Source: Veterinaerplatzvirus T145P1. From it: DNA of 45,312 nucleotides. The notes below the pieces were generated by a model, which saw only the letters and a program-made list of their open reading frames with translations, ran no database searches and was not told the origin of the DNA. The stretch lies in sequence record OZ035786.1. One strand, given 5' to 3'. Position numbers and translations under genes: made by a program. This document shows, in pieces, positions 30 through 45,031 of the stretch (positions are counted from its first letter, which is position 1; the number at the start of each line of letters is the position of its first letter).

Positions 30-536
30 ATGAGCAAAACAGCATTAAAGATGGGTGAGGGAAATTTCAAGGCGCTCTACAACAAGAAGTATGGCGATAT
101 TGCTATGGTGGCAATTAACCGCAAGTACACGCCTGAGGAAGTTTTCGATTTCGCCGTTAGGTACTTCTCATGGGCTGAAAGTACGGCAATCAAGGCCGCT
201 GAGACAGCATCATTTCAGGGCATGGTCACTGAACACCTCATACATAAACCTCGAGTATTCACATTAACCGGGCTGGCGCTCTTCATGGGTGTTAATATCA
301 ATAGGTTCGCTCGCTGGCGTACTGAGGCTGGATACTCTGACGTGATGGAATTCATTGATAACGTAATCTACGAGCAGAAATACCAGCTTGGCGTCGCAGG
401 CATCATCAACTCCACCATCGTTGGTAAAGAGCTTGGCATTGATAAGCCGCAGGAGATTACCATTAGCAACAACTCCACAGCTAACGACGTTGACAGCATG
501 AAGGAAGCGCTGGAATCTGTTATTGGTAAACTATAA
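30..536 (+). CDS. terminase small subunit (putative)
   Basis: 168-aa ORF immediately upstream of the large terminase, SD aaggagga 6 nt before ATG; call is positional, no diagnostic motif seen. Confidence 0.55.
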   Translation: MSKTALKMGEGNFKALYNKKYGDIAMVAINRKYTPEEVFDFAVRYFSWAESTAIKAAETASFQGMVTEHLIHKPRVFTLTGLALFMGVNINRFARWRTEAGYSDVMEFIDNVIYEQKYQLGVAGIINSTIVGKELGIDKPQEITISNNSTANDVDSMKEALESVIGKL

Positions 537-553
537 CAATAAGAGGGTATAAC

Positions 554-2119
554 ATGTCTTTAGTATGGGAAGAAATGACCATTCAGGAAAAGATGGCGGT
601 TAAGGCGATATCAGAACACAGCTTCGAGGGGTTTCTTCGCTGCTGGTTTTCAATAACGCAAGGCGAGCGATATATCCCTAACTGGCATCACAAATATCTA
701 TGCCGAATTATCGACGAGATTATTGCAGGTGAGCGCAAGGACACTATAATTAACATAGCGCCTGGTAGCGGGAAGACAGAGATCGCATCAATCCACTTCC
801 AGGCCTACTCGATGGTTAAGCTGAAGAAGGTGAGGAACCTTAACATCTCATTTGCTGACTCCCTGGTTAAGCGCAACTCTAAGCGCGTACGTGACCTTAT
901 CAAGTCTCAAGAATTTCAATCACTATGGCCTTGCAAGTTTGGCACATGCAAAGACGATGAACTTCAGGTTCTTGATGAGAGTGGCAGGGTTAGATTTGAG
1001 TCAATATCAAAGGCGGCTGGGGGTCAGATTACTGGTGCTCGAGGTGGTTATATAACAGAAACATATAGCGGAGCCGTTCTATTGGATGATTTTGACAAAC
1101 CCGCAGATATGCTTTCTCCGGTTTATCGAGCTAACAACCACGTAATGCTTAAGAACACAATTCGATCACGTCGCGCTAGCTCTGTAAAGGGAAAGGCAAC
1201 ACCAATTATCTCTATACAGCAGCGCCTGCACGTCAATGACTCAACCTGGTTCATGATGGAAGGCGGTATGGGCATCGAATTCGATTTAATTAAGATACCA
1301 GCGCTAGTTACCGATGATTACATCGATTCACTTCCTGACTGGATTAAAGATCAGTTTGCTGAGGACGTACTAAGCAGTGAATATATTGAGCGAGATGGAG
1401 TAAAGTACTACAGCTACTTTCCTAAAAAGGAATCCGTAAACGACCTGGTGGCAATGTGGGATAGTGACCCGTACACTTTCCTTAGCCAATATCAACAATG
1501 CCCAGTGGCTCTTGGCGGTAACCTGATTAACGTGGATTGGTTCCAGCGTCTTAGTGATACATTCAGGCCTCCAGCTAAGTACGATTACAGATTCATCACA
1601 TGCGATACTGCGATGACTACAAAGAGTTATAGTGACTTCTCCGTGCTTCAGTTATGGGGCTATAAGGATGCTAAGATTTACCTGATAGACCAGCGCAGGG
1701 GAAAATGGGAAGCACCAGAGTTGGAGGCTGAACTGCTGGACTTCGAGAAGAAATCAAGGGCAACCAGTCAGTCAGATGGTATCCTCAGAAGGATTATTAT
1801 CGAGAAGAAAGCGTCTGGTATCGGCCTGATTCAATCAGCTGGCAGGGTTATGCGAACACCGATAGAGCCATACGTACCGGATAACGACAAGCTGACTCGC
1901 GTAATGAGCGCATTGCCACAGATTAAGGCTGGTAATGTCGTTCTTCCAGAGTCTGCGCCGTGGCTAAACGGATTGCTTACTGAGGTTGCTGCTTTTACGG
2001 CAGATGATAGCCACAAACACGACGACCAGATTGACTGTCTAACTATGGCAATCAACCTGGTACTTAACATTGCGGACGACCCCAAAGCGCGACTAATGCG
2101 CATAGCGGGAATTAAATAG
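554..2119 (+). CDS. terL: terminase large subunit
   Basis: 521 aa; Walker A-like PGSGKTE near N-terminus, acidic nuclease-like C-terminal half (DDFDKP, DDQIDC); position after small subunit. Confidence 0.88.
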   Translation: MSLVWEEMTIQEKMAVKAISEHSFEGFLRCWFSITQGERYIPNWHHKYLCRIIDEIIAGERKDTIINIAPGSGKTEIASIHFQAYSMVKLKKVRNLNISFADSLVKRNSKRVRDLIKSQEFQSLWPCKFGTCKDDELQVLDESGRVRFESISKAAGGQITGARGGYITETYSGAVLLDDFDKPADMLSPVYRANNHVMLKNTIRSRRASSVKGKATPIISIQQRLHVNDSTWFMMEGGMGIEFDLIKIPALVTDDYIDSLPDWIKDQFAEDVLSSEYIERDGVKYYSYFPKKESVNDLVAMWDSDPYTFLSQYQQCPVALGGNLINVDWFQRLSDTFRPPAKYDYRFITCDTAMTTKSYSDFSVLQLWGYKDAKIYLIDQRRGKWEAPELEAELLDFEKKSRATSQSDGILRRIIIEKKASGIGLIQSAGRVMRTPIEPYVPDNDKLTRVMSALPQIKAGNVVLPESAPWLNGLLTEVAAFTADDSHKHDDQIDCLTMAINLVLNIADDPKARLMRIAGIK

Positions 2120-8196: not shown

Positions 8197-8587
8197 ATTA
8201 TCATTAGCAGCAAGGAAATTCGTCAACGATTTGTTGGTAAATGAATTTCCGGTCAGATATCCAGTTGCGTGGGAGAATGCTGCATTCACCCCTCCTGCGG
8301 ATGGATCAATCTGGCTTAAGTACGACTACACGGAAGTTGATACTGTAACCTACGGATTAAGCAGGAAGTGCAAATACTACGTAGGCATGGTGCAGATTTC
8401 TGTTTTCTTCAGCCCTGGCACTGGAATTGATAGACCCAGACAAATCGCTAATCAATTGGCAGAATCTATCGTTGATGGTACAATGCTTGACAGCGGGACC
8501 ATTTATGAGTCTGGAGTTGTTAACCCGGTTATCAAATCCAAATCTGGGTGGTTTATCCCGGTTCGTTTTTATGTTCGTCTAGACTAA
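8186..8587 (+). CDS. tail terminator-like protein (putative)
   Basis: GTG start 6 nt after SD ggaggagg and just before upstream stop; the track ATG at 8045 would overlap the previous gene by about 150 nt. Confidence 0.4.
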   Translation: MQYELSLAARKFVNDLLVNEFPVRYPVAWENAAFTPPADGSIWLKYDYTEVDTVTYGLSRKCKYYVGMVQISVFFSPGTGIDRPRQIANQLAESIVDGTMLDSGTIYESGVVNPVIKSKSGWFIPVRFYVRLD

Positions 8588-8602
8588 CAAAAGGAAAAAT
8601 AA

Positions 8603-9259
8603 ATGGCTCATCTCAGCAATGGCACGCAGGTCTTCGTAGAAGGCTCTCGCGGAGCTGCAATTGACGTAACTGCAATTTCTAACGCAGTTACCCCTGTTTT
8701 AACTGTATCTGACGCCTCTGACTTGGTCGTTGGTGATTACTTGCTTTTCACCTCTTCTGCCTCAACTCTTCTGGCTGACAAGCAGGTTCGCGTAACTGCA
8801 ATCACTGATACGTCAGTAACCGTTGAAGGTATTGATACCTCCAGCACCACTAAGTTCCCTGCTGGTCTAACTGGTGAAGTTGTTAAAATTACTTCATGGT
8901 TCGAGGTTCCTTGTGTTCAGGACGTATCTACTGACGGCGGCGAACAGCAGTTCGTTAACTTCCAGTGCTTGTCAGATGACCGCGAACAGAAGATTCCGAC
9001 TTATAAATCTGCCGTAACAAACACCTTCACCTTTGCTCACGAGTACACTAACCCGGTTTATCCGGTTCTGCGTAACTACGACGAGTCTGGCCAGGTTGTT
9101 GCGATTCGTCTGTTCGTACCTCGCGCTCAGGAAATGCGTTTACAGTCCGGCACTATCGCTTTCAACGACACCCCTACCATTGGTGTTAACGAAATCGAAA
9201 CGGTATCCATCGCAGTATCCATTCGTGGGCGCCTATCCTCTGTGGCAGCAGAAGTTTAA
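8603..9259 (+). CDS. major tail protein (tube)
   Basis: 218-aa Thr/Ser/Val-rich ORF, SD aaggaaaa, followed by strong terminator; position before the chaperone/tape-measure genes. Confidence 0.7.
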   Translation: MAHLSNGTQVFVEGSRGAAIDVTAISNAVTPVLTVSDASDLVVGDYLLFTSSASTLLADKQVRVTAITDTSVTVEGIDTSSTTKFPAGLTGEVVKITSWFEVPCVQDVSTDGGEQQFVNFQCLSDDREQKIPTYKSAVTNTFTFAHEYTNPVYPVLRNYDESGQVVAIRLFVPRAQEMRLQSGTIAFNDTPTIGVNEIETVSIAVSIRGRLSSVAAEV

Positions 9260-10326: not shown

Positions 10327-13308
10327 ATGGCAACAAATGAATTAGCCGGAATCACACTAGCCGTAGATGTCTCGCAAGTAGACAGGGGAACGCAATCCCT
10401 GCAAAAGTTCAGACAGGCAAACCAGCAAGCCGCTTCCGGTATTAGTGAATTCGTCAACGCTGAGCAGGTTGCTAAAAACCAGGCGAGAGATACGGCTCGT
10501 GCACTTTCTGAGCAGCAAGCGTCACTAGCTAAATTGCAAACAGCTATCGACCCAACTGCTGCAAAGTTCCGCAAGCTGCAAGAGGCAGCGGTGGGTCTTG
10601 ATAAGGCATTCGCTGCTGGCGTAGTTCCTGACGAGGAATTTTTCCGCTTAGGTGAGGCGCTAGAAACTCAAAACGCAAAACTTGCTCGTTCACGTGCGGC
10701 GCTAACTGAAGAGGGTAGGGCGGCAGCGCAGGCTGCAAAGGATAAGGCAAAAGCAAAGGCTGAAGCGGATAGATTCATTGCATCACTTGAGCGTCAGGCT
10801 CAAGCGGCAACATTGACGCGTGAGGAGTACTTAAAGTTACAAGCGGCCCAGCTTGGCGTTAGTTCTCAGGCAGCACCCATCATTGACAGAATCGCCGACG
10901 CATCACAGAAGGCAAACACCCAGTTAATTGCTCAGAGTAAGGCTTTTCAGAAATCAGGATTAAGCGCCGGGCAATACAAGAATGCCATATCTCAACTACC
11001 AGCGCAGATTACTGATATTGGCACGTCGCTTGCTGGTGGCATTCCGATTTGGCTTATTGCAATTCAGCAAGGTGGGCAGATCAAGGATGCATTTGGCGGC
11101 ATTGGTAACACCTTTAGATTCGCACTTGCAGCCTTAAACCCATTCAATGTAGCTGTTGGTGTTTTGGGTGGGGTACTTGTAGCTCTTGGTGTTGGTGCGG
11201 CTCAGGCTGAAAGTGAATTCAGAGCATTAAACTCTGCCATTGCATTTTCCAACAACTCTACAATCGCATCAATCTCGCAGGTTAGAGAGTTGGTTAGCTC
11301 TGTTTCTGATGCAACAGGTGCCACCAGAGGGCTTGTGACTAGCATCGCAACAAGCCTTATTGAGCAAGGGAACCTTACGCTGACGCAGATTGACAAGATT
11401 ACTAAATCGACCGCAAGATGGGCGCAGTTGACAGGCAAGGATGCGAAGGAAATTACTGGTTACTATAACCAGATTGCGAGCGACCCAATACAGGGATTGG
11501 TTGATTTGGATAAGCGCTTTAACTTCCTCACTCAGGGGCAGTTGACGACAATCGAAAACCTGAGAAAGACAAAGGGAGAGGTCGAGGCCGTTACCGCCGC
11601 AATTGACATTTTCAGCAAGTCGCAGGAAGCAAACCTTAACGACATAGCAGCGCAGTTAACTCCACTTGAGTTAGCCTGGAATGACTTTAGAAAGTACATC
11701 TCTGACATTTGGGATGCAATTAGCCGCAGAACGGTTGGGTCGCTAAACCTGTTTGTTGACGTAATTGCCGGAACAATTGAGCAGATCAGGGTCTTCATTA
11801 ACCAGGGTGACGTACTGATTGGTGAATTCGTAATTAGCGCAACGCAAGCGCTGCAAAACATTCCTGGTCTTGATGGTGTTGGTGATGATGTCATAAAGAG
11901 CCAGCAGAAGATTATCGATGCAGCCAAGAAGCAAAACCTTGAGCTAGAAAAGTCTATCAAGGAGCGCGATGCCAGAATAAGAGAAGGAGAACTTGGTTAC
12001 GTTACTCGCAGAGAAAATCAGAATACCAATGAGCAGTCAGGCACGGATGAGGAGTTTGCAAAAAGGAAGAAGGCGCTTCAGGATGAACTTGATGCGATCA
12101 AGAAGAACAGGAAAGAAGAAAATGGCAGGGTTAAAGAGCAAAGAGACCTTACAATTGGTTACGAATCTGGCGTACTGGCACTTCAGGCTCAACTCAAGGT
12201 TCTTCAGGAAAATAGGGATATTGGCGCAGTAATAAGTAATGAGCGCAAGCAGTATCTTCAGGATGAAGCCAAATTCAGGATTCTTGAGCAGAGGCAGCTT
12301 GATGGTTCAATCACCAAAGAGCAGTCAAGACTTCTTCTTGAGAAGGATAAAGTCCTCGAATTGGCAAGGCAGAAGGCTGAACTTGGAGATCAGATTGTTT
12401 TGCAGGAGCGAGCCAATAAGTTAGCTGAAGATAACCGCAAGAAGATTCTTCAGATTAACAACGAAGCAAAAAACATTGATTTGGGGGCTGGTCTATCTTC
12501 TCGTGAACAACAGAGAGCCAAAGAGATTCAGGCTCTTCAGTCCAATCAGGTTAATGCTGGTGGCGCAATTGATGACGTGGATTTTCAGCAGCTTCTCGAG
12601 GCAAGACGTAACTTTTATGCTCAGGAAGATGCGCTACGTGAAAACTGGCTTGCTGGTGTGAACCAATCCTTTGCTAATTGGGCTGAGAGCGCGACGGATG
12701 CATTCTCAATTGCTGGAAGTTTAACCACCACAGTATTTGAAGGCATTACTGACCAGATTACTGACCTTGTAACAACTGGTGAAACTAACTTCAGAGAGTT
12801 CACTGTTAACATCCTTAAACAGATTGCTAAGATTGCGGCTCAGCTTCTTATTGTTAAGGCTATCGAGTCTAGTTTAAGTAGCTTTGGTGGTACTGGTGGC
12901 GCGATTGGCTCTATCGCATCTGCGATTGGTGGTGGATTCGCTAACGGTGGTTATACTGGTAATGGAGGGAAATACCAACCAGCAGGAACCGTACACCGTG
13001 GTGAGTTTGTATTCACAAAAGAAGCAACTAGTCGAATCGGTGTTAAGAACCTTTACGCTCTAATGAAAGGTTACGCAAACGGTGGTGTCGTTGGTGGTCC
13101 CTCTGGCTATGCAAATGGTGGCTTGGTTTCTGGAGGCACAGATGTTAATGTTAGTGGAATTACGGTTAACGTTAATAGTGGAATTGGAAGTGACCCAGAG
13201 CAGGCCAAGGCGCTGCAAAATGGCGTTAAGGCAATTGTAGCTGAAGAGATTTCTCAGTCTTTCCAGCAGGGTGGCAGAGCTTATCAGTACCTGCGCGGAT
13301 TTAACTAA
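10327..13308 (+). CDS. tail tape measure protein
   Basis: 993 aa, long Ala/Gln/Glu-rich coiled-coil N-terminal half, Gly-rich C-terminal region; SD ggagg. Confidence 0.9.
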   Translation: MATNELAGITLAVDVSQVDRGTQSLQKFRQANQQAASGISEFVNAEQVAKNQARDTARALSEQQASLAKLQTAIDPTAAKFRKLQEAAVGLDKAFAAGVVPDEEFFRLGEALETQNAKLARSRAALTEEGRAAAQAAKDKAKAKAEADRFIASLERQAQAATLTREEYLKLQAAQLGVSSQAAPIIDRIADASQKANTQLIAQSKAFQKSGLSAGQYKNAISQLPAQITDIGTSLAGGIPIWLIAIQQGGQIKDAFGGIGNTFRFALAALNPFNVAVGVLGGVLVALGVGAAQAESEFRALNSAIAFSNNSTIASISQVRELVSSVSDATGATRGLVTSIATSLIEQGNLTLTQIDKITKSTARWAQLTGKDAKEITGYYNQIASDPIQGLVDLDKRFNFLTQGQLTTIENLRKTKGEVEAVTAAIDIFSKSQEANLNDIAAQLTPLELAWNDFRKYISDIWDAISRRTVGSLNLFVDVIAGTIEQIRVFINQGDVLIGEFVISATQALQNIPGLDGVGDDVIKSQQKIIDAAKKQNLELEKSIKERDARIREGELGYVTRRENQNTNEQSGTDEEFAKRKKALQDELDAIKKNRKEENGRVKEQRDLTIGYESGVLALQAQLKVLQENRDIGAVISNERKQYLQDEAKFRILEQRQLDGSITKEQSRLLLEKDKVLELARQKAELGDQIVLQERANKLAEDNRKKILQINNEAKNIDLGAGLSSREQQRAKEIQALQSNQVNAGGAIDDVDFQQLLEARRNFYAQEDALRENWLAGVNQSFANWAESATDAFSIAGSLTTTVFEGITDQITDLVTTGETNFREFTVNILKQIAKIAAQLLIVKAIESSLSSFGGTGGAIGSIASAIGGGFANGGYTGNGGKYQPAGTVHRGEFVFTKEATSRIGVKNLYALMKGYANGGVVGGPSGYANGGLVSGGTDVNVSGITVNVNSGIGSDPEQAKALQNGVKAIVAEEISQSFQQGGRAYQYLRGFN

Positions 13309-13338
13309 TTAACGGGGCTTCGGCCCCTAAGGATTTTT

Positions 13339-13689
13339 ATGGCAATAGATAATTTTACATGGTGTACACAAATCCAGAATGGTGGAGCTGCATTTTCCAA
13401 TACAAACAATGTTCGTATTGTTAGCTTTGGCAATGGTTTTGAGCAAAGAGGAACAGGGGGCTACCGCAGTAATAAGCGCAGCTACCAGATGACCTATACA
13501 AACAAGGACTGGCGTGAGGTTATGGATTTCTGCTTCAATCACATCATCACACCATTCTTCTGGAAAACACCGCAAGGTGATACTTCTATGTTTGTTATTC
13601 AGCAGGATAGCATTTCAGTTACACCAATTAGTAGCGAAGTTCAGACTGTAAACATGCAATTCGTAGAAGTTTTTAGCTCAATGCGTTAA
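13339..13689 (+). CDS. minor tail protein (lambda M-like)
   Basis: 116 aa directly after tape measure; begins the M-L-K-I-J order. Confidence 0.7.
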   Translation: MAIDNFTWCTQIQNGGAAFSNTNNVRIVSFGNGFEQRGTGGYRSNKRSYQMTYTNKDWREVMDFCFNHIITPFFWKTPQGDTSMFVIQQDSISVTPISSEVQTVNMQFVEVFSSMR

Positions 13690-13694
13690 ACTAA

Positions 13695-13714
13695 GCCCCT
13701 ATATGGGGCTTTTT
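13695..13714 (+). terminator. rho-independent terminator (weak)
   Basis: gcccc-tatat-ggggc hairpin followed by T5. Confidence 0.5.
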
Positions 13715-13727
13715 GTTGGAGAAATAT

Positions 13728-14483
13728 ATGTTAAGTCCAAAGTTTGAAAATCAGTTGCAAAGCCTTTTCCCTGGTGAGATTGTGACACTAATCCAGGTTG
13801 ACGGCACGTCCTTCGGGGGTCTCGTTTATTCGTTCCACAATGAGAACATCTCATACACTCCAGAAGAAATCATGCTGGCTCAAATGAATGGCGAGCCACT
13901 ACCAGAGAAAACCATCACATTTCGTGGTGAAGAGTACGGGCCTAGACCATTTGGAATCTCTGGCATAAATATGACTTCTGACGGAAAGGCCAATAAGGTT
14001 ACATTAACGGTATCAAACGTTGACCAGCGTATTAGTGCGTTAATCCGAACATACAACGGACTTGTTAAAGCTAAGGTTACAATCTGGATTACTACGCGCG
14101 ATAACATCAATGAGGATGGAAGCATTGCTGACGGGGACTATCGCAGATTCGTTTACTTTATTGAGCGACCGAAGCAGGTTGACTACAAGACCGCATCGTT
14201 TGAGCTAAGCAGCCCGATGGATATGGATGGTATTTATATCCCCGCAAGACTTGTTCAGTCTGTTTGCTATTGGGCTTCTAGGGGTTGGTATCGCAGCGGT
14301 AATGGATGCGACTACGCTGGCAATCGTTATTTTGACAAAGACGACAACCCGGTAAGTGATCCGTCTCTAGATTTCTGCGCCGGAACAGTTAATAGCTGTA
14401 AGATTAGATTTGGAGAGAATAACCAGCTTTCATTTGGTGGATGCGCAGCAGCAAGCCTTCAAGCTAAAGCGAATCAGAGCTAA
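13728..14483 (+). CDS. minor tail protein (lambda L-like)
   Basis: Track start is TTG 13713; ATG 13728 has SD ggag. C-terminal Cys cluster (CYWASRGW, NGCDY, FCAGTVNSC) like the L Fe-S motif. Confidence 0.75.
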   Translation: MLSPKFENQLQSLFPGEIVTLIQVDGTSFGGLVYSFHNENISYTPEEIMLAQMNGEPLPEKTITFRGEEYGPRPFGISGINMTSDGKANKVTLTVSNVDQRISALIRTYNGLVKAKVTIWITTRDNINEDGSIADGDYRRFVYFIERPKQVDYKTASFELSSPMDMDGIYIPARLVQSVCYWASRGWYRSGNGCDYAGNRYFDKDDNPVSDPSLDFCAGTVNSCKIRFGENNQLSFGGCAAASLQAKANQS

Positions 14484-20594: not shown

Positions 20595-20690
20595 TGCATA
20601 CACGTAACCGATGTAACTCGATGTATACAATCTCATCCGCGGAAAATGATATACGCACTGTTACGCAAATTTACGCATTGGTTACATTAA

Positions 20691-20752
20691 AATATCTATA
20701 TATATCAACCTTTTACTCTTATTATTATTATATATATATTACTGTGTATATC
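20691..20752. repeat. AT-rich repeat block copy 1 (second copy near 39755)
   Basis: aatatctatatatatcaaccttttact-(TTA)n-tatatat-tactgtgtata; within a divergent intergenic region. Confidence 0.6.
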
Positions 20753-20851
20753 ATGTAACTACTTCTATAGAGTGTTCCGGTTATAATTTTAATATCATGT
20801 GGATTTATACAGTATTGCGCTGCAGCTATACCAATGCACCCTCAGCAATAA

Positions 20852-27752: not shown

Positions 27753-28232
27753 TCAAATCGTGCTGTTTTGCTCTTTCTTCTTTTGGTTCTCTAATTTTAT
27801 CTTGCGCCATGAACGACACTCTGGCTTAGTGGCTAATTCAGCCTCAGTGACGACTCGCAGCATATGGCGCTTTTTGCACCGAAGTGTCAGCGGTTTCCCG
27901 TTGCCGTCGAATTGCAGGTCTGGTCGGCAGAATGTAGCGCGAAAACCTTCTCCATTTCGCTTATAGTAGTTGTGAGAAAGTTGAGCCCCACGCGCAGAAA
28001 TCATACCGCGCTTAAACCATTCTTCTACAGCCTGTGGTGTTACCTTTAACTGCTTTGCGATATTCGCCTTTGTGCCGAAGAAATCAAGAACTATCTCTAG
28101 CCGCGCGCGTAGCCCGGCTCTTACTTCATCTTTTAAAACATAGTAGCCTGAAGGTCGTTTACGTTGCTTTTTGTCTTCGGTGCGGATGGTTCCGTTATTG
28201 CCGTTAATTGTTCGCTTGTCGACTGTATTCAT
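27753..28232 (-). CDS. HTH DNA-binding protein (Cro/YdaS-like)
   Basis: Helix-turn-helix-like segment TKANIAKQLKVTPQAVEEWFKRG; basic termini; its SD overlaps a palindrome copy. Confidence 0.5.
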   Translation of the reverse strand: MNTVDKRTINGNNGTIRTEDKKQRKRPSGYYVLKDEVRAGLRARLEIVLDFFGTKANIAKQLKVTPQAVEEWFKRGMISARGAQLSHNYYKRNGEGFRATFCRPDLQFDGNGKPLTLRCKKRHMLRVVTEAELATKPECRSWRKIKLENQKKKEQNSTI

Positions 28233-28333: not shown

Positions 28334-30328
28334 ATGTTGCCTATCGAGAAGCTGGTTGCAAATTTCGATAAAGAAAGAATCAAACAGATTCAGAAAGACT
28401 ATCAGTTTGGAGAGATAACCCCTTACGAATTCCAGTGCGTGACATTTGATGCAATCGGAAAGGCTATTGGCAAGTACGAGGCACCATTTATCGCAGACCT
28501 TTCAGTATCTGCGGGTAAGACAATCATTCTTGCCATGATTGGTAAGCGCATGGAGCAGCTTGGGCTTCCCTATATGGTTCTCTCTCGCCAGTCAGAGATT
28601 ATCAGCCAGAACTCAGAAGAGCTTCGTAATTTCGGCATACGTAATAGCGTCTATTGCGCTGGCCTTAACGTCAAATCAGTTTACTACCCAACTATAGTGG
28701 CCAGTGAGGGTACGGCAGCCAACGGCTTGTTTAAGGGGCTTGGTGACTATGTTCCGGCAGTTATCGCTATAGATGAGTGTCACATGGTCGATCACATGGA
28801 TATCGTGGAGGCTGAAGAGAATGAAGAAACATTTGAGCAAATGAGCACAAAGAAAGGCGATATGGTTTTTAAGGATGGCGTAAACACAGGATTGCTTGGT
28901 ACTGGTCGTGCGCAGTACACGCTAATTATCACCGAGATGAAACGTCGTTGTCGTGAGAAGTACGGGCGTGAGCTTCGTATATTCGGTCTTACTGGCAGCC
29001 CGTATCGTAACAACGATCATATCGTCGTTAGCAACCCAAACATCCGTGGATTCTGGCGCAAAACAGTGATTCAGGTGCCAACAAATTATCTGGTTGATTT
29101 GGGCTTCGTTGTTCCTACTGTTTATGGTGAAGTTGGTGACCTGGGTTATGACCTTAGTGAGTTTGCGCCAGACGGAAGCGATGGCGTTAAAGACTTCAGC
29201 AAGAAAGAAATGGATGCAATGGCTGCAAAGATTCACGACAACCAATCAATGACCCAAAAGATAATGGGTTTTGTTGTGAAAATACTCGAGACTCGTAACG
29301 CTGCATTGGTAACATGCGCTGGCAAACTCCATTGTGATGAGGCTGCTGCGGCACTACCAGATGGATACCCTTACGCCATCATCACAGACTCTACGGGAGA
29401 GAGGAAGCGCAGGGAGATTCTGGCTGATTGCCAGACAGGTAAGTACAAAATAATATTCCAGATTGGTTGTCTTACTACGGGCGTAAACCAGCCGCTGTGG
29501 GATACTAGCGTCATACTACGCAAGATTGGCAGCCTAACGCTTATGATTCAGCTTCTTGGTAGGGGGATGCGCAAACTTAAGAGATCTCATATTGATGCTG
29601 GTTTTCATAAAGAAGATCACCTTGTGCTGGATTTTGCTGGCGCACTTGATGATATGGCTGAGCTTTACTTTGACCCAATTATTGAAGAGATTCAGGCTGA
29701 GAAGTTTAAATCCTCAAGAAAAGGTGGCGATGAGGTTCGTCAGTGTCCGCAATGTGGATATGAAAATTCCCCATTCGCTCGTCGCTGTAGCAATAAGATT
29801 GATGGCGTTAGATGCGATCACTTCTTTCAGTTCACAATTTGCGAAGACATTACCGACGCGCAAACTAAATCGGTAATTAAAAAGGGTTGTGGCGCTCGCA
29901 ATGACATAGCAGCAAAGGTTTGCAGGGAATGCGGCGAGATGCTTAAAGACCCAAATGCTAACCTGACTGGCAAAATGTATCGTCGTGGTGATTACCTTCG
30001 TGTTTATGATTTTCAAGTTGGGTTAAGTAAGAATCAGACAGGCATTGTAGTTAAGTACAATATAATGGCTCATAACGGAGAGAGATTTAACGCTTGGGAG
30101 TTCTTTAATCCAGAATCAGACCATCGAGTTTGCAGTGTGCTCTGGAAGAACTTTTGCTTAGCTCATATTGAGAATCGCACGGAAGCGGCACGAATTGGCA
30201 GGCTTAAAAATGCCAGAATGATTATGACTAACGTAGATAAGTTCCGTGCGCCAGTTCAGGTTACGCATCGCCGGAATGCAAAAGGAAAGGACGTGATAGC
30301 GTTTAAGAATTTTGGAGAATTATTATGA
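28334..30328 (+). CDS. superfamily 2 DNA helicase with C-terminal zinc-ribbon motifs
   Basis: Walker A SVSAGKT, DExH box IAIDECH, motif VI-like LLGRGMRK; CPQCGYEN...CRECGEM pairs near C-terminus. Confidence 0.8.
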   Translation: MLPIEKLVANFDKERIKQIQKDYQFGEITPYEFQCVTFDAIGKAIGKYEAPFIADLSVSAGKTIILAMIGKRMEQLGLPYMVLSRQSEIISQNSEELRNFGIRNSVYCAGLNVKSVYYPTIVASEGTAANGLFKGLGDYVPAVIAIDECHMVDHMDIVEAEENEETFEQMSTKKGDMVFKDGVNTGLLGTGRAQYTLIITEMKRRCREKYGRELRIFGLTGSPYRNNDHIVVSNPNIRGFWRKTVIQVPTNYLVDLGFVVPTVYGEVGDLGYDLSEFAPDGSDGVKDFSKKEMDAMAAKIHDNQSMTQKIMGFVVKILETRNAALVTCAGKLHCDEAAAALPDGYPYAIITDSTGERKRREILADCQTGKYKIIFQIGCLTTGVNQPLWDTSVILRKIGSLTLMIQLLGRGMRKLKRSHIDAGFHKEDHLVLDFAGALDDMAELYFDPIIEEIQAEKFKSSRKGGDEVRQCPQCGYENSPFARRCSNKIDGVRCDHFFQFTICEDITDAQTKSVIKKGCGARNDIAAKVCRECGEMLKDPNANLTGKMYRRGDYLRVYDFQVGLSKNQTGIVVKYNIMAHNGERFNAWEFFNPESDHRVCSVLWKNFCLAHIENRTEAARIGRLKNARMIMTNVDKFRAPVQVTHRRNAKGKDVIAFKNFGELL

Positions 30329-30744
30329 AGATTACAGATAAAGAAGATTACATTGAGTTTTACCCGGGTCCGGTTAAGTCATGCCCTAAAGAGGATGACG
30401 AACAAATCTTTTGCTCTGATTGGGTTAAGTATAACTACCCAGATATGGTATTTTTCCATTGCGTGAATGAGGGAAAGAAAACCATTGGTCAAGCAAGAAA
30501 AGACCAGGCTAAGGGGCTTCTAAAAGGCGTATCAGACTGTATGTTTCTTATTCCTGAATCACTTCGAGGTAAGTATCCTTTCGGAGCTATAGAGCTAAAG
30601 AGGGCTGGCAAAACTCAAGCAAGTCCAGTCAGCGAAGAACAGAAAGCATTCCTGAAAAGTGTAATGGAATCAGGCGGTTTCTCGGCAGTCGCCTACGGAC
30701 GTGAGGGTTTTCTTGCAGCATTCAAAGAAATGATTTCAAAATAG
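30325..30744 (+). CDS. VRR-NUC domain nuclease (putative)
   Basis: ATG overlaps helicase stop (ATGA); GVSDCMFL...GAIELKRAGK resembles the D...E-x-K core of VRR-NUC. Confidence 0.5.
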   Translation: MKITDKEDYIEFYPGPVKSCPKEDDEQIFCSDWVKYNYPDMVFFHCVNEGKKTIGQARKDQAKGLLKGVSDCMFLIPESLRGKYPFGAIELKRAGKTQASPVSEEQKAFLKSVMESGGFSAVAYGREGFLAAFKEMISK

Positions 30745-32480: not shown

Positions 32481-32563
32481 CGAGCCTAATACTAGTAGCA
32501 TCGTTACCACTGTTTAGCTTTACCATCTTATACTTTATCGTAATGAATTAAGGAACTTCTATA

Positions 32564-33694
32564 ATGGCAACAGCAAAAATCACCAACGAACAATTGCGCG
32601 AAGAGTTAGCAAACGGCATGACCAACAAGGCAATCGCAGAGAAGTACGGAATGAACATTCGCAACGTTGAATTGCGTCGCAGTAAATTAGCTAAACAAGG
32701 CGAAGGGCATGGTCGCGATGTAAGCAACTTAATCCCTCAGGGCTATGCAGTTAAAGGCGTCTCCAGCTTAATTGGTGCTGATGGCGAGATTAAGCAACAG
32801 TGGGTTAAATCAGATATCGACAAGGAGAAGCAAGAAGAGATGATGCTTCAGGCAATTCAGGCCCTAACTGATGAGTTGCCGCGTGAGAAAGCTAAAGCTT
32901 TAAGGGTTGGTTTATGGGAAGATACTTTAAGCCTTTACCCCGTGTTCGACCTCCACATTGGAGCAATGGCTCATCATGCTGAGTGTGGTGAGAACTATAG
33001 TACTGAAATCGCTGAGAGAGTTCTTAATGATTACTTTGATTACGCGGTTGCAAAGGCCCCCAACTCCAAGAAAGCTGTATTGCTGATTGGGGGTGACTTC
33101 CTTCACTCTGACGGAATGGAAGCGGTAACACCAACCAGTTGTCATGTTCTTGATCAAGATAGCCGTTATCACAAACTTGTTTACGTAGCAGTGCGATCGA
33201 CACGTCGAGCAATTAGCCGCATGCTTGATAAGCACGCCGAGGTTGAGGTTCAGATTATTCCAGGTAACCACGATCTCTCAGGTATGATTTGGCTTCGTGC
33301 TGCAATGGCAGCTTTCTATATGGATGAGCCTCGAGTTAATGTTGATGCGTCCCCCGCTGCGCTTCACGTAACGCAATTTGGGAAGACGCTGCTTGGTTAC
33401 TGCCATGGGCACGAACTCAAAAAGCCTGATACCCGACTATCAGCACTGGCTCGTGACCATCGCAAAGCATTTGGTGAATCAGAGTATGTTTACACCCATT
33501 CAGGCCACTATCACCATCAAACTATTACGGAAGGAAATCTGGGTATTGATGAATCACACGGCCAGCTTGGAGCGAAAGATGCGTACAGTGCTAACGGAGG
33601 TTATCGCTCTTACCGACAGGCTTCGGTGATAATTTATAGTCCTGAGTTTGGTGAGATTGGACGATTTACTTGCCGCCCGGAAATGTTTAGTTAA
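32564..33694 (+). CDS. HTH domain fused to calcineurin-like metallophosphoesterase
   Basis: N-terminal HTH-like TNKAIAEKYGMNIRNVELRRSKL; phosphoesterase motifs DLH, GGDFLH, GNHD, CHGHE, HSGHYHH in order. Confidence 0.6.
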   Translation: MATAKITNEQLREELANGMTNKAIAEKYGMNIRNVELRRSKLAKQGEGHGRDVSNLIPQGYAVKGVSSLIGADGEIKQQWVKSDIDKEKQEEMMLQAIQALTDELPREKAKALRVGLWEDTLSLYPVFDLHIGAMAHHAECGENYSTEIAERVLNDYFDYAVAKAPNSKKAVLLIGGDFLHSDGMEAVTPTSCHVLDQDSRYHKLVYVAVRSTRRAISRMLDKHAEVEVQIIPGNHDLSGMIWLRAAMAAFYMDEPRVNVDASPAALHVTQFGKTLLGYCHGHELKKPDTRLSALARDHRKAFGESEYVYTHSGHYHHQTITEGNLGIDESHGQLGAKDAYSANGGYRSYRQASVIIYSPEFGEIGRFTCRPEMFS

Positions 33695-33737
33695 TAGCAC
33701 TTTTTGCCTAACGCATGCCGTAGAAATGCGGCATAAT
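33694..33737 (+). promoter_or_regulatory. phage promoter family copy (variant with hairpin in spacer)
   Basis: atagcactttttgcctaa, 22-bp spacer containing atgccg/cggcat inverted repeat, cataat, cacatcgaaacgag leader. Confidence 0.5.
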
Positions 33738-33778
33738 TACCACATCGAAACGAGATGAACTAAACGAGGAAACACAAA

Positions 33779-33955
33779 ATGACTAAAATGATTTATTGCA
33801 CCAAAAACAACTCCAAAACGCTGCCATTTACAGTTAACCAGCCGTACAATGCAGAGTACCAGGGTGATGGATATTACAAGATTTACGGTGACGATATGAC
33901 GTGGATTTTAGCGCCGATTGAAGGTTCACTGGTTGAATTTATTATCGCTGACTAG
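33779..33955 (+). CDS. hypothetical small protein
   Basis: 58-aa ORF (MTKMIYCTKNNSK...), SD acgagg, followed by terminator. Confidence 0.4.
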   Translation: MTKMIYCTKNNSKTLPFTVNQPYNAEYQGDGYYKIYGDDMTWILAPIEGSLVEFIIAD

Positions 33956-33981: not shown

Positions 33982-34007
33982 GGGGGGCCTTTTGGCTCCC
34001 CTTTTTT
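33982..34007 (+). terminator. rho-independent terminator
   Basis: ggggggcc-tttt-ggctcccc hairpin followed by T6. Confidence 0.7.
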
Positions 34008-34086
34008 ATGCTTCTTTTCCGAGCATGGCTCCTGTATCATGTTTACACTAACTTAAACATTGACAAATAAATAAATGGAGGATCAC

Positions 34087-37179: not shown

Positions 37180-37365
37180 TACTTCTCTCCGTGTTGTTTC
37201 TGAGCGGCCATTATAACAACGACCGCTTATAAAGCATTATCAATTTGTGCTATTAATTGTTCTTAATCCACTTTAGACACATCCACAATCCAGCCCCATA
37301 GAATGCAATCTTGAGAACTTCAGCTAAGACAAGGATAATAAAGTATCCACCACCAAGTAAATCAA

Positions 37366-39470: not shown

Positions 39471-39754
39471 TCGTTAGATTTATGTATTGTTGCAGATATT
39501 GCAATGATTCACTTGATTATTGCACATACAGCAATATTGCTTCCGATGCAATGATGTTTTTGATTGTTGCGAAAAGTGAAATTAAGTGGTGAGTGAGTGA
39601 ATGAAAGATGGATGGACTACCATACAAGTTGATTTTTACCAATCTATGGGAGCCTCACGGATATACGCGTATCCTCCGTATACTCAGTGTCGTCACAAAA
39701 GTTAGTGACCACTAACCTACGTTTTTACGCGATATATACACACGATATACAATA

Positions 39755-39830
39755 TAATATCTATATATATCAACCTTTTACTTTATTATTATTATTATTA
39801 TTATATATATGTATACTGTGTATACCGGTA
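39755..39830. repeat. AT-rich repeat block copy 2 (first copy near 20691)
   Basis: aatatctatatatatcaaccttttact-(TTA)n-tatatat-tactgtgtata with a longer TTA tract; the track ORF here is a poly-Leu artefact. Confidence 0.6.
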
Positions 39831-42242: not shown

Positions 42243-42572
42243 ATGAGTAAATACGATCGCAAGATTATTGGCATTGATGGCACAGTAACAACAGTAGATG
42301 TTTATCGTGTTCTTGATGCGTTTGGCGTATCTGACCCAGCCACTCAGCATGCGGTAAAGAAGATGCTTTGCACTGGCCTGCGTGGACACAAGGATTACTT
42401 AACTGACCTTAATGACTCCATTGAGTCACTACAGAAGGCTAAAGAGATTTACTGGCAGAAGATGATTCATGAATCCGATAAAATCACTGATTCAATTTTA
42501 AATCCACCAAAAGAAGCGAGATTTAGTACTGCTAATGGTTCAGAATTCACTTTCGGAAAGGTTAGAGTCTAA
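42243..42572 (+). CDS. hypothetical protein
   Basis: 109-aa ORF; upstream TGgTATAAT extended -10 at about 42081. Confidence 0.5.
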   Translation: MSKYDRKIIGIDGTVTTVDVYRVLDAFGVSDPATQHAVKKMLCTGLRGHKDYLTDLNDSIESLQKAKEIYWQKMIHESDKITDSILNPPKEARFSTANGSEFTFGKVRV

Positions 42573-42952: not shown

Positions 42953-43086
42953 TTTACATCCACACGTACTACACTGGTAAGTTTAATAGCGTCAAACATG
43001 TCCGTGTTCACGATAACTACGAGAGCGCAAAAGCTCAATGGTTGGTTCTTGGTGGTGACATTAATTCATACAGAGTTGCTGAGTAG
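42949..43086 (+). CDS. hypothetical small protein
   Basis: 45-aa ORF ([15 protein letters not shown]...), ATGA overlap upstream, TAG stop inside next promoter motif. Confidence 0.35.
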   Translation: MIYIHTYYTGKFNSVKHVRVHDNYESAKAQWLVLGGDINSYRVAE

Positions 43087-43126
43087 CACTAATTGCTAAA
43101 ACAGTATTGGGGTAATTTGTTATAGT
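43083..43126 (+). promoter_or_regulatory. phage promoter family copy
   Basis: gtagcactaattgctaaaa, 22 bp, tatagtta, ccccatcgaaacgagagagg leader. Confidence 0.55.
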
Positions 43127-43156
43127 TACCCCATCGAAACGAGAGAGGAATAAGAA

Positions 43157-43336
43157 ATGACATTTCAACAAAGTGAGCCAAAGCTCCAGGCTAATCACTT
43201 CGATGGTTATTCGACCTTTATCATTGCCCAGGCCTGCGGGATGCGTGACGAACCACAGGTTCACACAATTCACTTAACCGAAGAGCAGGCTCGAGAGATT
43301 GCTTACGAAATTCTTGAGCAATTGAACCGAATTTAA
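43157..43336 (+). CDS. hypothetical small protein (possible paralog family member)
   Basis: 59-aa ORF; C-terminal LTEEQAREIAYEIL resembles the motif of the 41121 and 41593 proteins. Confidence 0.4.
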   Translation: MTFQQSEPKLQANHFDGYSTFIIAQACGMRDEPQVHTIHLTEEQAREIAYEILEQLNRI

Positions 43337-43385
43337 CGCGACTAAAGCGCATTCTAACGAACGATAATTTAAGTAAGGTGATTCT

Positions 43386-43547
43386 ATGATTAAGATTGTT
43401 TATGTTGGCGAGAGTGATTATGTGGCGCTCATTCAGCGTGGTGATGTGTTCTTCGCTGAGCTAAGTGAGGATGGAAAATATTACATTGTAAAGAATAAGA
43501 ATGGCGAGGATATTTACCTATCAAAAGATGAGGTCATAGTTCACTGA
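43386..43547 (+). CDS. hypothetical small protein
   Basis: 53-aa ORF (MIKIVYVGESDYVALIQRGD...), SD aaggtg. Confidence 0.4.
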   Translation: MIKIVYVGESDYVALIQRGDVFFAELSEDGKYYIVKNKNGEDIYLSKDEVIVH

Positions 43548-43678
43548 TGGATAACTACGAATCACCAAGCCAGTGGGCCAAACGAATGCAGGACGAAGCC
43601 AAGACTGGTGAAGAGGCGATGGCTTACTACGAGCTAGCGCAAATTTGGATGAAGCGGGAGGGCAAGAGCAATGATTAA
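43547..43678 (+). CDS. hypothetical small protein
   Basis: 43-aa ORF (MDNYESPSQWAKRM...), start overlaps upstream stop (TGATG). Confidence 0.3.
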   Translation: MDNYESPSQWAKRMQDEAKTGEEAMAYYELAQIWMKREGKSND

Positions 43679-44954: not shown

Positions 44955-45031
44955 GCTCGAGTGGCGAAAGTGGATATCGCAAGAGACTTCTAATCTCTAG
45001 ATTGCTGGTTCGAATCCAGCCTCGAGCGCCA
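44955..45031 (+). tRNA. tRNA-Arg (anticodon UCU), CCA encoded
   Basis: Hand-folded cloverleaf: acceptor gctcgag/ctcgagc, D-stem gcga/tcgc, anticodon stem agaga/tctct with loop cttctaa, T-arm gctgg-ttcgaat-ccagc, discriminator g, CCA. Confidence 0.75.

Follow-up and report, generated by a model that had tools for sequence, protein, structure and literature searches.

The 45,312-nucleotide sequence OZ035786.1 (Veterinaerplatzvirus T145P1), hereafter the window, amounts to an essentially complete T1-like phage genome (Drexlerviridae, Braunvirinae). At 32564..33694 on its plus strand lies a complete gene (376 aa plus stop) for a protein in which an N-terminal helix-turn-helix (HTH) is joined through a hairpin to a calcineurin-like metallophosphoesterase. 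This layout is the constant architecture of a large phage family, of which the gene is an ordinary, catalogued member and not in itself new. We tentatively favour the reading, which we consider slightly short of probable, that the protein serves phage DNA metabolism as a DNA-tethered nuclease resembling Mre11, SbcD and DP1. The N-terminal HTH, of the LuxR/sigma-region-4 type and flexibly linked, would hold the enzyme on DNA, and the two-metal core, whose fold and motifs come closest to those of the Mre11/SbcD/PolD-DP1 nuclease branch, would cut DNA phosphodiester bonds. Such action on DNA would fall in the middle-to-late period and could serve one of two roles. First, host or unpackaged DNA could be degraded and its nucleotides re-used. 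Second, replication or recombination intermediates could be trimmed ahead of packaging. The reading frame, the intact catalytic site, the HTH fold, the size of the family and the gene contexts are shown; DNA as the substrate, DNA binding by the HTH and the biological role are what we infer.

This reading is preferred because the metal ligands are invariant, motifs I and II align with those of Thermotoga Mre11 and the HTH is found family-wide, and also because replication and recombination genes lie upstream of the gene, with a 3'-phosphatase and a deoxynucleoside monophosphate (dNMP) kinase downstream in several clades. A further reason is that both T1 and TLS break down the host chromosome and re-use its nucleotides, the responsible genes being so far unidentified (PMC11447400), and that gp48 of A10ZJ24, a stand-alone mycobacteriophage metallophosphoesterase, provides the precedent of a DNase that degrades host DNA (PMC12287305).

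Architecture, active site and fold

The open reading frame (ORF) starts with ATG, ends with TAA and is preceded by a Shine-Dalgarno-like AAGGA at 32550..32554 (+), read from the sequence 9 nt 5' of the start codon. The five ordered phosphoesterase motifs that an earlier note, made from the sequence alone, had seen in it are all present on the plus strand: motif I, D129-L-H131 (32948..32956), which supplies two metal ligands; motif II, G177-D178-F-L-H181 (33092..33106); motif III, G234-N235-H236-D237 (33263..33274); motif IV, H281-G282-H283 (33404..33412); and motif V, G314-H315-Y316-H317 (33503..33514). Across 117 aligned homologues, most of them 30-40% identical, the metal ligands do not vary; D129, H131, D178, N235, H236, H281, G314 and H317 are invariant, and H181 and H315 are conserved in at least 90%. 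The five-motif match is not a product of chance. Profile, alignment and model agree on a catalytic domain at residues 118-376 (32915..33691, +) with no extra capping domain, and the protein ends ~60 residues past motif V.

The profile of PHROG 704 spans the whole protein (residues 4-375 against positions 2-389 of 390, E = 2.5e-148). The Pfam Metallophos model (PF00149) gives 21.0 bits, marginally below its gathering cut-off of 21.5, and a plain Pfam scan would therefore overlook this protein; the same model matches 28 of the 117 family members at E <= 0.01. ORFs overlapping the gene in other frames or on the opposite strand had no PHROG match, and Rfam and tRNA scans placed no RNA gene within or near it. 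Their sole match was a tRNA-Arg (anticodon TCT) at 44955-45031 of the window, and the Escherichia phage JeanPiccard (BASEL Bas02) has one too.

The proposed helix-turn-helix was borne out as well. An AlphaFold model built on the 117-homologue alignment (pLDDT 93, pTM 0.79) shows a three-helix fold with predicted helices at residues 8-16, 21-28 and 32-44. Profile matches and model together place an HTH of the LuxR/GerE, sigma-70 region 4 and resolvase type at residues 5-46 (32576..32701, +), with residues 32-44, NIRNVELRRSKLA, as its presumed recognition helix. Over residues 13-42 of this protein the HTH profiles match weakly and below their Pfam cut-offs (GerE E = 0.044, 13.8 bits against 23.5; Sigma70_r4_2 E = 0.22, 11.7 bits against 25.7), whereas in other family members they match strongly (Sigma70_r4_2 1.5e-9, GerE 2.4e-8, HTH_8 1.8e-6), and HTH_1 is matched in 28 members. 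Judging from the model, the N-terminal region is an HTH with a recognition helix and a DNA-binding fold, and would be expected to bind DNA. Domain search and structure prediction, two of the checks that the earlier note had put forward, returned a DNA-binding fold at the N-terminus together with conserved catalytic residues.

Between the two domains, a connector at residues 59-104 (32738..32875, +; alignment and model) consists of a long β-hairpin (61-85), in which G74, W80 and K82 are near-invariant, followed by a helix (87-102). None of the structural matches reached into this segment, which appears from the alignment to be specific to the HTH-phosphoesterase family. The loop that follows motif II (H181-x-D183 ... 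T189 ... L196-D197-x-D199-x-R201) is likewise family-specific and nearly invariant, and may shape the substrate site.

The catalytic domain adopts the β-sandwich two-metal phosphoesterase fold, and its closest solved structures are the DNA nucleases PolD DP1, SbcD and Mre11, with protein phosphatases not among them. Small-molecule phosphodiesterases come next in the structural comparison (MJ0936 14.0, LpxH 13.6, YfcE 12.9, Rv0805 12.4, GpdQ 12.3) and PPP protein phosphatases stand well below (8.7-9.0), a ranking with which Foldseek concurs. When the family profile is set against Thermotoga Mre11, motif I (DxHxG) corresponds to SDWHLG and motif II (GDfLH) to GDLLHS. A search of PDB sequences with the single protein gave no match, and one with the family profile gave marginal matches to GerE and Mre11. 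NCBIfam returned sub-threshold noise alone (PdeM, FixJ-type regulators, DS9 phosphoesterase): PdeM, the ligase-associated DNA-damage-response endonuclease (TIGR04123), reached 19.5 bits against a cut-off of 150, and the DS9 anti-phage phosphoesterase model 12.2 bits against 420.

The earlier note had taken the fusion of the two domains to be unusual, but it is the fixed layout of the family. Of 50,697 phage records, 2,048 contained a homologue by translated search, and in 1,744 of these at least 80% of the protein was covered; the host genera include Escherichia, Klebsiella, Salmonella, Vibrio, Campylobacter, Flavobacterium, Rhodobacter, Ruegeria and Yersinia. Searched exhaustively, a set of 1.84 billion cluster representatives (50% identity) yielded 4,676 clusters with E <= 1e-3, of which 989 reach E <= 1e-30. 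Among 149 representatives drawn from the 150 best matches, 141 are 340-460 aa long and 141 have motif I from residue 100 on; the HTH profile, partly built from the same sequences, is matched by 130. Both virulent and temperate phages carry the family, the latter recognised by nearby integrase or S24 repressor genes, and one homologue belongs to a prophage in a 3.3-Mb genome.

At the DNA level the gene is 99.4-99.7% identical to deposited genes (Veterinaerplatzvirus T145P1 99.7%, JeanPiccard 99.6%), and the protein is 59% identical to its TLS homologue, 61% to that of Webervirus and 44-47% to those of Dhillonvirus and Jerseyvirus. Other members of PHROG 704 ('DNA repair exonuclease') are the JeanPiccard counterpart bas02_0047, annotated there as 'hypothetical protein', TLS gp66, the Klebsiella Webervirus 'phosphoesterase', Pantoea AAS23 gp38, SSL-2009a gp67 and Salmonella S134 orf26. 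The labels given to the family ('DNA repair exonuclease', 'phosphoesterase', 'Ser/Thr phosphatase', 'winged HTH protein', 'proof-reading exonuclease') are all predictions, and a search of the literature on escape mutants, anti-defence, virion proteomics and transcriptomes found no experimental study of the HTH-phosphoesterase family. The last label comes from the 2024 re-annotation of TLS, which applies it to gp66 (PMC11447400); it is unlikely to be literal, because T1-like phages encode no DNA polymerase.

Gene context in this and other phages

The window and JeanPiccard share the same gene order: terminase, head, tail, recombination, primase and regulator (minus strand), helicase, small ORFs, the HTH-phosphoesterase and then holin-endolysin-spanin. 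The HTH-phosphoesterase is the last gene of a plus-strand run opened by a helicase (28334-30328) and a VRR-NUC nuclease (30325-30744), as in T1-like phages at large, where the unit reads helicase, VRR-NUC nuclease, (Dam), small ORFs and HTH-phosphoesterase, with the lysis cassette next. A copy of the T1-type promoter-like repeat (aATAGCACtttTTGCCTAA ... CATAAT ... CATCGAAACGAGA) at 33692..33755 (+) overlaps the stop codon; the small gene that follows it encodes a 58-aa DUF7244 protein (PHROG 4788; 33779..33955, +) and is not conserved beside the HTH-phosphoesterase gene in TLS. A strong intrinsic-terminator-like hairpin at 33982..34001 (+), with eight pairs, seven of them G-C, and then a T run, stands between the phosphoesterase transcription unit and the holin-endolysin-spanin cassette, which begins at 34075. 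In the window, the gene belongs to the replication/recombination unit and not to the lysis operon.

Across ~20 homologue contexts, at 27-61% identity, the gene is placed at the junction of replication genes and late genes, often beside lysis or packaging genes. The replication or recombination genes found upstream are helicase and VRR-NUC in Drexlerviridae, SSB and an endonuclease in Vibrio K121, DnaB and NinG in the lambdoid locus L018, and a PIF1-like helicase, an exonuclease and DNA polymerase A in L020. In three clades (Webervirus, Sauletekiovirus AAS23 and Yersinia phage 636), a PNKP-type HAD 3'-phosphatase and a dNMP kinase, which represent nucleic-acid end processing and nucleotide salvage, lie directly 3' of the gene; this three-gene run occupies 3504-5738 in L012, 5992-8284 in L005 and gp38-40 in AAS23 (PMC8004638).

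Lysis and packaging neighbours recur, with an arrangement and an endolysin type that vary among phages. The order is holin, holin, endolysin, three more genes, phosphoesterase and TerS in SSL-2009a; holin, phosphoesterase and Peptidase_M15_4 in L015; phosphoesterase, two small ORFs and lysozyme in L016; GH108 endolysin, two to four small ORFs and phosphoesterase in L017 and L023; phosphoesterase and then GH19 in L019; and Peptidase_M15_4 endolysin, two small ORFs and phosphoesterase in L022. In two divergent metagenomic phages with no TerS recognisable nearby, the gene takes the place expected of a small terminase gene and either overlaps the start of TerL by 4 nt (L024, 4501-7316) or is followed by ORFs of 80 and 81 aa, TerL and portal (L021, 4501-7815). 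The Jedunavirus 1611E-K2-1 homologue lies ~1.6 kb 5' of the terminase, and that of Jerseyvirus stands among tail genes on the opposite strand.

The window departs from JeanPiccard in a few places. The dNMP-kinase-like P-loop gene of JeanPiccard (43029-43646) has no tblastn match in the window, where 42243-42572 holds a 109-aa ORF alone that matches the C-terminal part of ATPase PHROGs, and it appears that the gene was lost, truncated or replaced. Two homing-endonuclease genes of JeanPiccard (576-1052, between TerS and TerL, and 13303-13779, after the tape-measure gene) are missing at the corresponding places of the window (536-554 and 13308-13339), which explains part of the 1.8-kb difference in length. 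The window also contains a 75-nt AT-rich segment (TATCTATATATATCAACCTTTTAC and then ATT/TAT runs) in two copies that are 72% identical, at 20683-20757 and 39748-39822. Both sit at points of divergent transcription and could be early-promoter or origin regions.

Weighing the possible roles

Several points weigh against a DNA-tethered nuclease. The protein has no Mre11/SbcD capping domain and the phage no Rad50/SbcC partner, the window is without the 3'-phosphatase and dNMP kinase neighbours of other clades, and no assay of any family member was found in the literature. That temperate phages and prophages also carry the family speaks against destruction of the host chromosome as a universal role. 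Many homologues also lie in or beside lysis or packaging genes, a placement that a late regulator or a packaging helper would fit equally. Finally, on the classical T1 map the host-degradation locus 'gene 2.5' is not obviously here; we considered that assignment and do not claim it.

The first of these alternatives, a late-gene regulator, is improbable in our estimate. Its sigma-region-4/LuxR-like HTH would bind promoter DNA or RNA polymerase and turn on lysis or packaging genes, leaving the phosphoesterase domain an auxiliary or sensing part. Such a role would suit the type of the HTH, sigma-70 region 4/LuxR, and the frequent position of the gene directly 5' of same-strand late genes, whether for lysis (Drexlerviridae, Vibrio K121), TerS-TerL (SSL-2009a), TerL-portal (L024 and L021) or a head-tail adaptor (L022). 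RinA and ArpU, late activators of Gram-positive phages, are likewise sigma-region-4-like and encoded just 5' of terS. In L018 the gene follows NinG, at a position where lambda carries NinI and Q. A pure regulator, however, has no need of an invariant catalytic site; in several phages the gene lies at the 3' end of the late cluster, either among the lysis genes or past them, and in the window the strong terminator stands between the gene and the lysis cassette.

A regulator of this kind could also account for the many T1-type promoter-like repeats. The window holds at least 15 oriented copies of aaATAGCACnnnTTGCTAAA, followed by 22 nt, a -10-like TATAGT and then CATCGAAACGA; they lie at 2117, 9294, 22881, 26708, 28246, 30742, 31783, 33695, 40742, 41037, 42574, 43084 and 43951 on the plus strand and at 37252 and 39469 on the minus strand, always co-oriented with the gene downstream. 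The core of the repeat, the dyad TAGCA-N5-TGCTA, has its centre ~42 bp before the inferred start, a geometry that would be typical of activator-dependent promoters. The repeat was previously described in TLS, T1, Rtp and Rogue1, without a known binding protein (PMC11447400).

The earlier note had suggested that the HTH be tested against this palindrome family; a co-occurrence test across loci did not support such a link. The dyad is found in four of four T1-like loci, with 23-25 matches per whole T1-like genome and 2-7 in partial loci, and is absent from all 18 non-Drexlerviridae loci that have a homologue, except for one isolated, chance-looking match in Yersinia 636. SSL-2009a and S134, both whole genomes, are among the loci without the repeat. 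Across the groups the HTH is 52-62% identical and at least as well conserved as the catalytic domain, for which cross-group pairs share 40-52% and SSL-2009a and S134 share 83%. We therefore rejected the HTH as a general binder of TAGCA-N5-TGCTA across the family, as the repeat is missing despite so similar an HTH; the rejection covers the family as a whole, not the T1-like phages specifically. Nor was any over-represented 8-mer or 9-mer common to three whole genomes with similar HTHs, which also speaks against the late regulator.

A Cro-like regulator encoded at 27753-28232 (-), on the other hand, does track the repeat. It occurs in 824 records whose reported organisms and hosts are T1-like in appearance and, among the loci examined, only in the T1-like ones (the window, JeanPiccard and TLS) and not in SSL-2009a or S134. 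As it shares the distribution of the repeat, it is a better candidate binder than the HTH. The strong conservation of the HTH across enterobacterial phage families suggests a common target; non-specific DNA, host DNA and a host protein are candidates. The Dhillonvirus SSL-2009a has a nine-copy repeat of its own, ATTGGTTGCA, unrelated to the T1 type, which is often paired and lies just 5' of gene starts (6236, 22345, 25197, 27104, 27121, 36796, 40015, 40046 and 40573).

To a packaging-associated nuclease we give the same low probability as to a late regulator. The protein would then be an accessory DNA-cutting or recognition factor that works with the terminase, like the HNH endonucleases of HK97-like phages, and in a few phages it might replace the small terminase subunit. 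The 4-nt overlap with TerL in L024 and the position shortly before TerL-portal in L021, together with the short distance from the terminase in 1611E-K2-1, are consistent with this. In SSL-2009a the gene is, across the record ends, the last before TerS, after the lysis genes, which is the position of HK97 gp74. Furthermore, liquid chromatography-tandem mass spectrometry of purified virions detected the AAS23 homologue gp38, which is 70% identical to KP36 gp63 (PMC8004638) and is possibly a particle-associated enzyme, although this lone detection may reflect carry-over. Against a role in packaging, the gene lies ~11 kb from the terminase in Drexlerviridae and the window has a canonical TerS at 30-536, the Jerseyvirus homologue stands among opposite-strand tail genes and that of L020 is found beside a DNA polymerase.

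Less likely still is a small-molecule nucleotide phosphodiesterase, which would cleave cyclic or linear signalling nucleotides, either to counter CBASS, Pycsar or Thoeris or as an alarmone hydrolase. The earlier note had raised, as speculation, an anti-defence enzyme acting on nucleotide second messengers, for which we found no support. A PADLOC scan gave 0 matches, in a library that consists of defence-system models and does not cover anti-defence proteins; the nearest structures are DNA nucleases; and a conserved HTH of the DNA-binding type is of no obvious use to a hydrolase of soluble nucleotides. The gene is also very widely conserved with a fixed architecture, whereas anti-defence genes are usually patchy, and the anti-CBASS and anti-Pycsar hydrolases Acb1 and Apyc1 have folds unlike that of this protein. 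The region can hold anti-defence genes, as seen in the metagenomic phage L016, where a gene with the Acb2/Tad1 hairpin (anti-CBASS/anti-Thoeris sponge fold; 8565-8927) lies three genes 3', just past the lysozyme. The sole phage metallophosphoesterase with a reported counter-defence role is, however, a DNase (PMC12287305).

The least probable role is that of a protein Ser/Thr/Tyr phosphatase acting like lambda NinI on host or phage phosphoproteins, since motif II here is GDFLHSD and motif III GNHD where the PPP signatures are GDxVDRG and GNHE, even though S134 orf26 was deposited as 'putative serine/threonine protein phosphatase' and the L018 homologue holds a nin-region position.

Returning to a nuclease that recognises DNA, a bolder proposal, which we regard as unlikely but a little less so than either a late regulator or a packaging nuclease, is that the family is a missing component of siphoviruses. 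It could be either the enzyme of host-chromosome breakdown and nucleotide re-use in T1 and TLS, or a DNA-recognising nuclease or regulator at the switch to lysis and packaging; in some marine phages, the homologue occupies the small-terminase position, directly before TerL. If true, either version would assign a function to a gene that ~4% of sequenced phage genomes carry. Found in ~2,000 isolate genomes and in several thousand clusters of sequences, the family is among the more widespread phage genes with a conserved and evidently enzymatic active site, and T1-type phages are laboratory workhorses and candidates for therapy. The analysis also corrects the inconsistent labels 'DNA repair exonuclease', 'proof-reading exonuclease' and 'Ser/Thr phosphatase'.

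Comparison with known phosphoesterases and HTH proteins

The catalytic core of the protein resembles that of Mre11 and SbcD, with which it shares its nuclease type and the histidines in motifs II and III, but the protein is outside the Mre11/SbcD family. It has neither their capping domain nor their C-terminal Rad50-binding helices, and has an N-terminal HTH instead; the similarity of the family profile is marginal (E ~0.02), and the structural alignments cover 186-190 residues of chains 319-362 residues long. No Rad50/SbcC gene is annotated in JeanPiccard, which is 99.6% identical, and the flanking ORFs of the window are small or unrelated. The PolD small subunit DP1, an Mre11-like 3'-5' proofreading exonuclease, shares 12% identity with the protein and differs in that it acts within a polymerase complex.

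Among phage enzymes, the stand-alone metallophosphoesterases of cluster A mycobacteriophages (A10ZJ24 gp48, Bxb1 gp47) are likewise phage-encoded and have the same five motifs, but are ~255 aa long and without the N-terminal HTH. Homology to these DNase-type phosphoesterases was considered and set aside beyond the superfamily level, with an hhalign probability of 14% over motifs III-V only. Bxb1 gp47 doubles as a recombination directionality factor. NinI, the lambda protein phosphatase of the PPP family, is also a phage calcineurin-like phosphoesterase, and its nin-region position is held in L018 by the homologue of the present gene.

On the HTH side, the comparison is with LuxR/GerE and NarL-type regulators, sigma-70 region 4 and resolvases, from which the protein differs in that its HTH is joined to an enzyme and not to a receiver or ligand-binding domain. 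From the other members of PHROG 704, there is no substantive difference.

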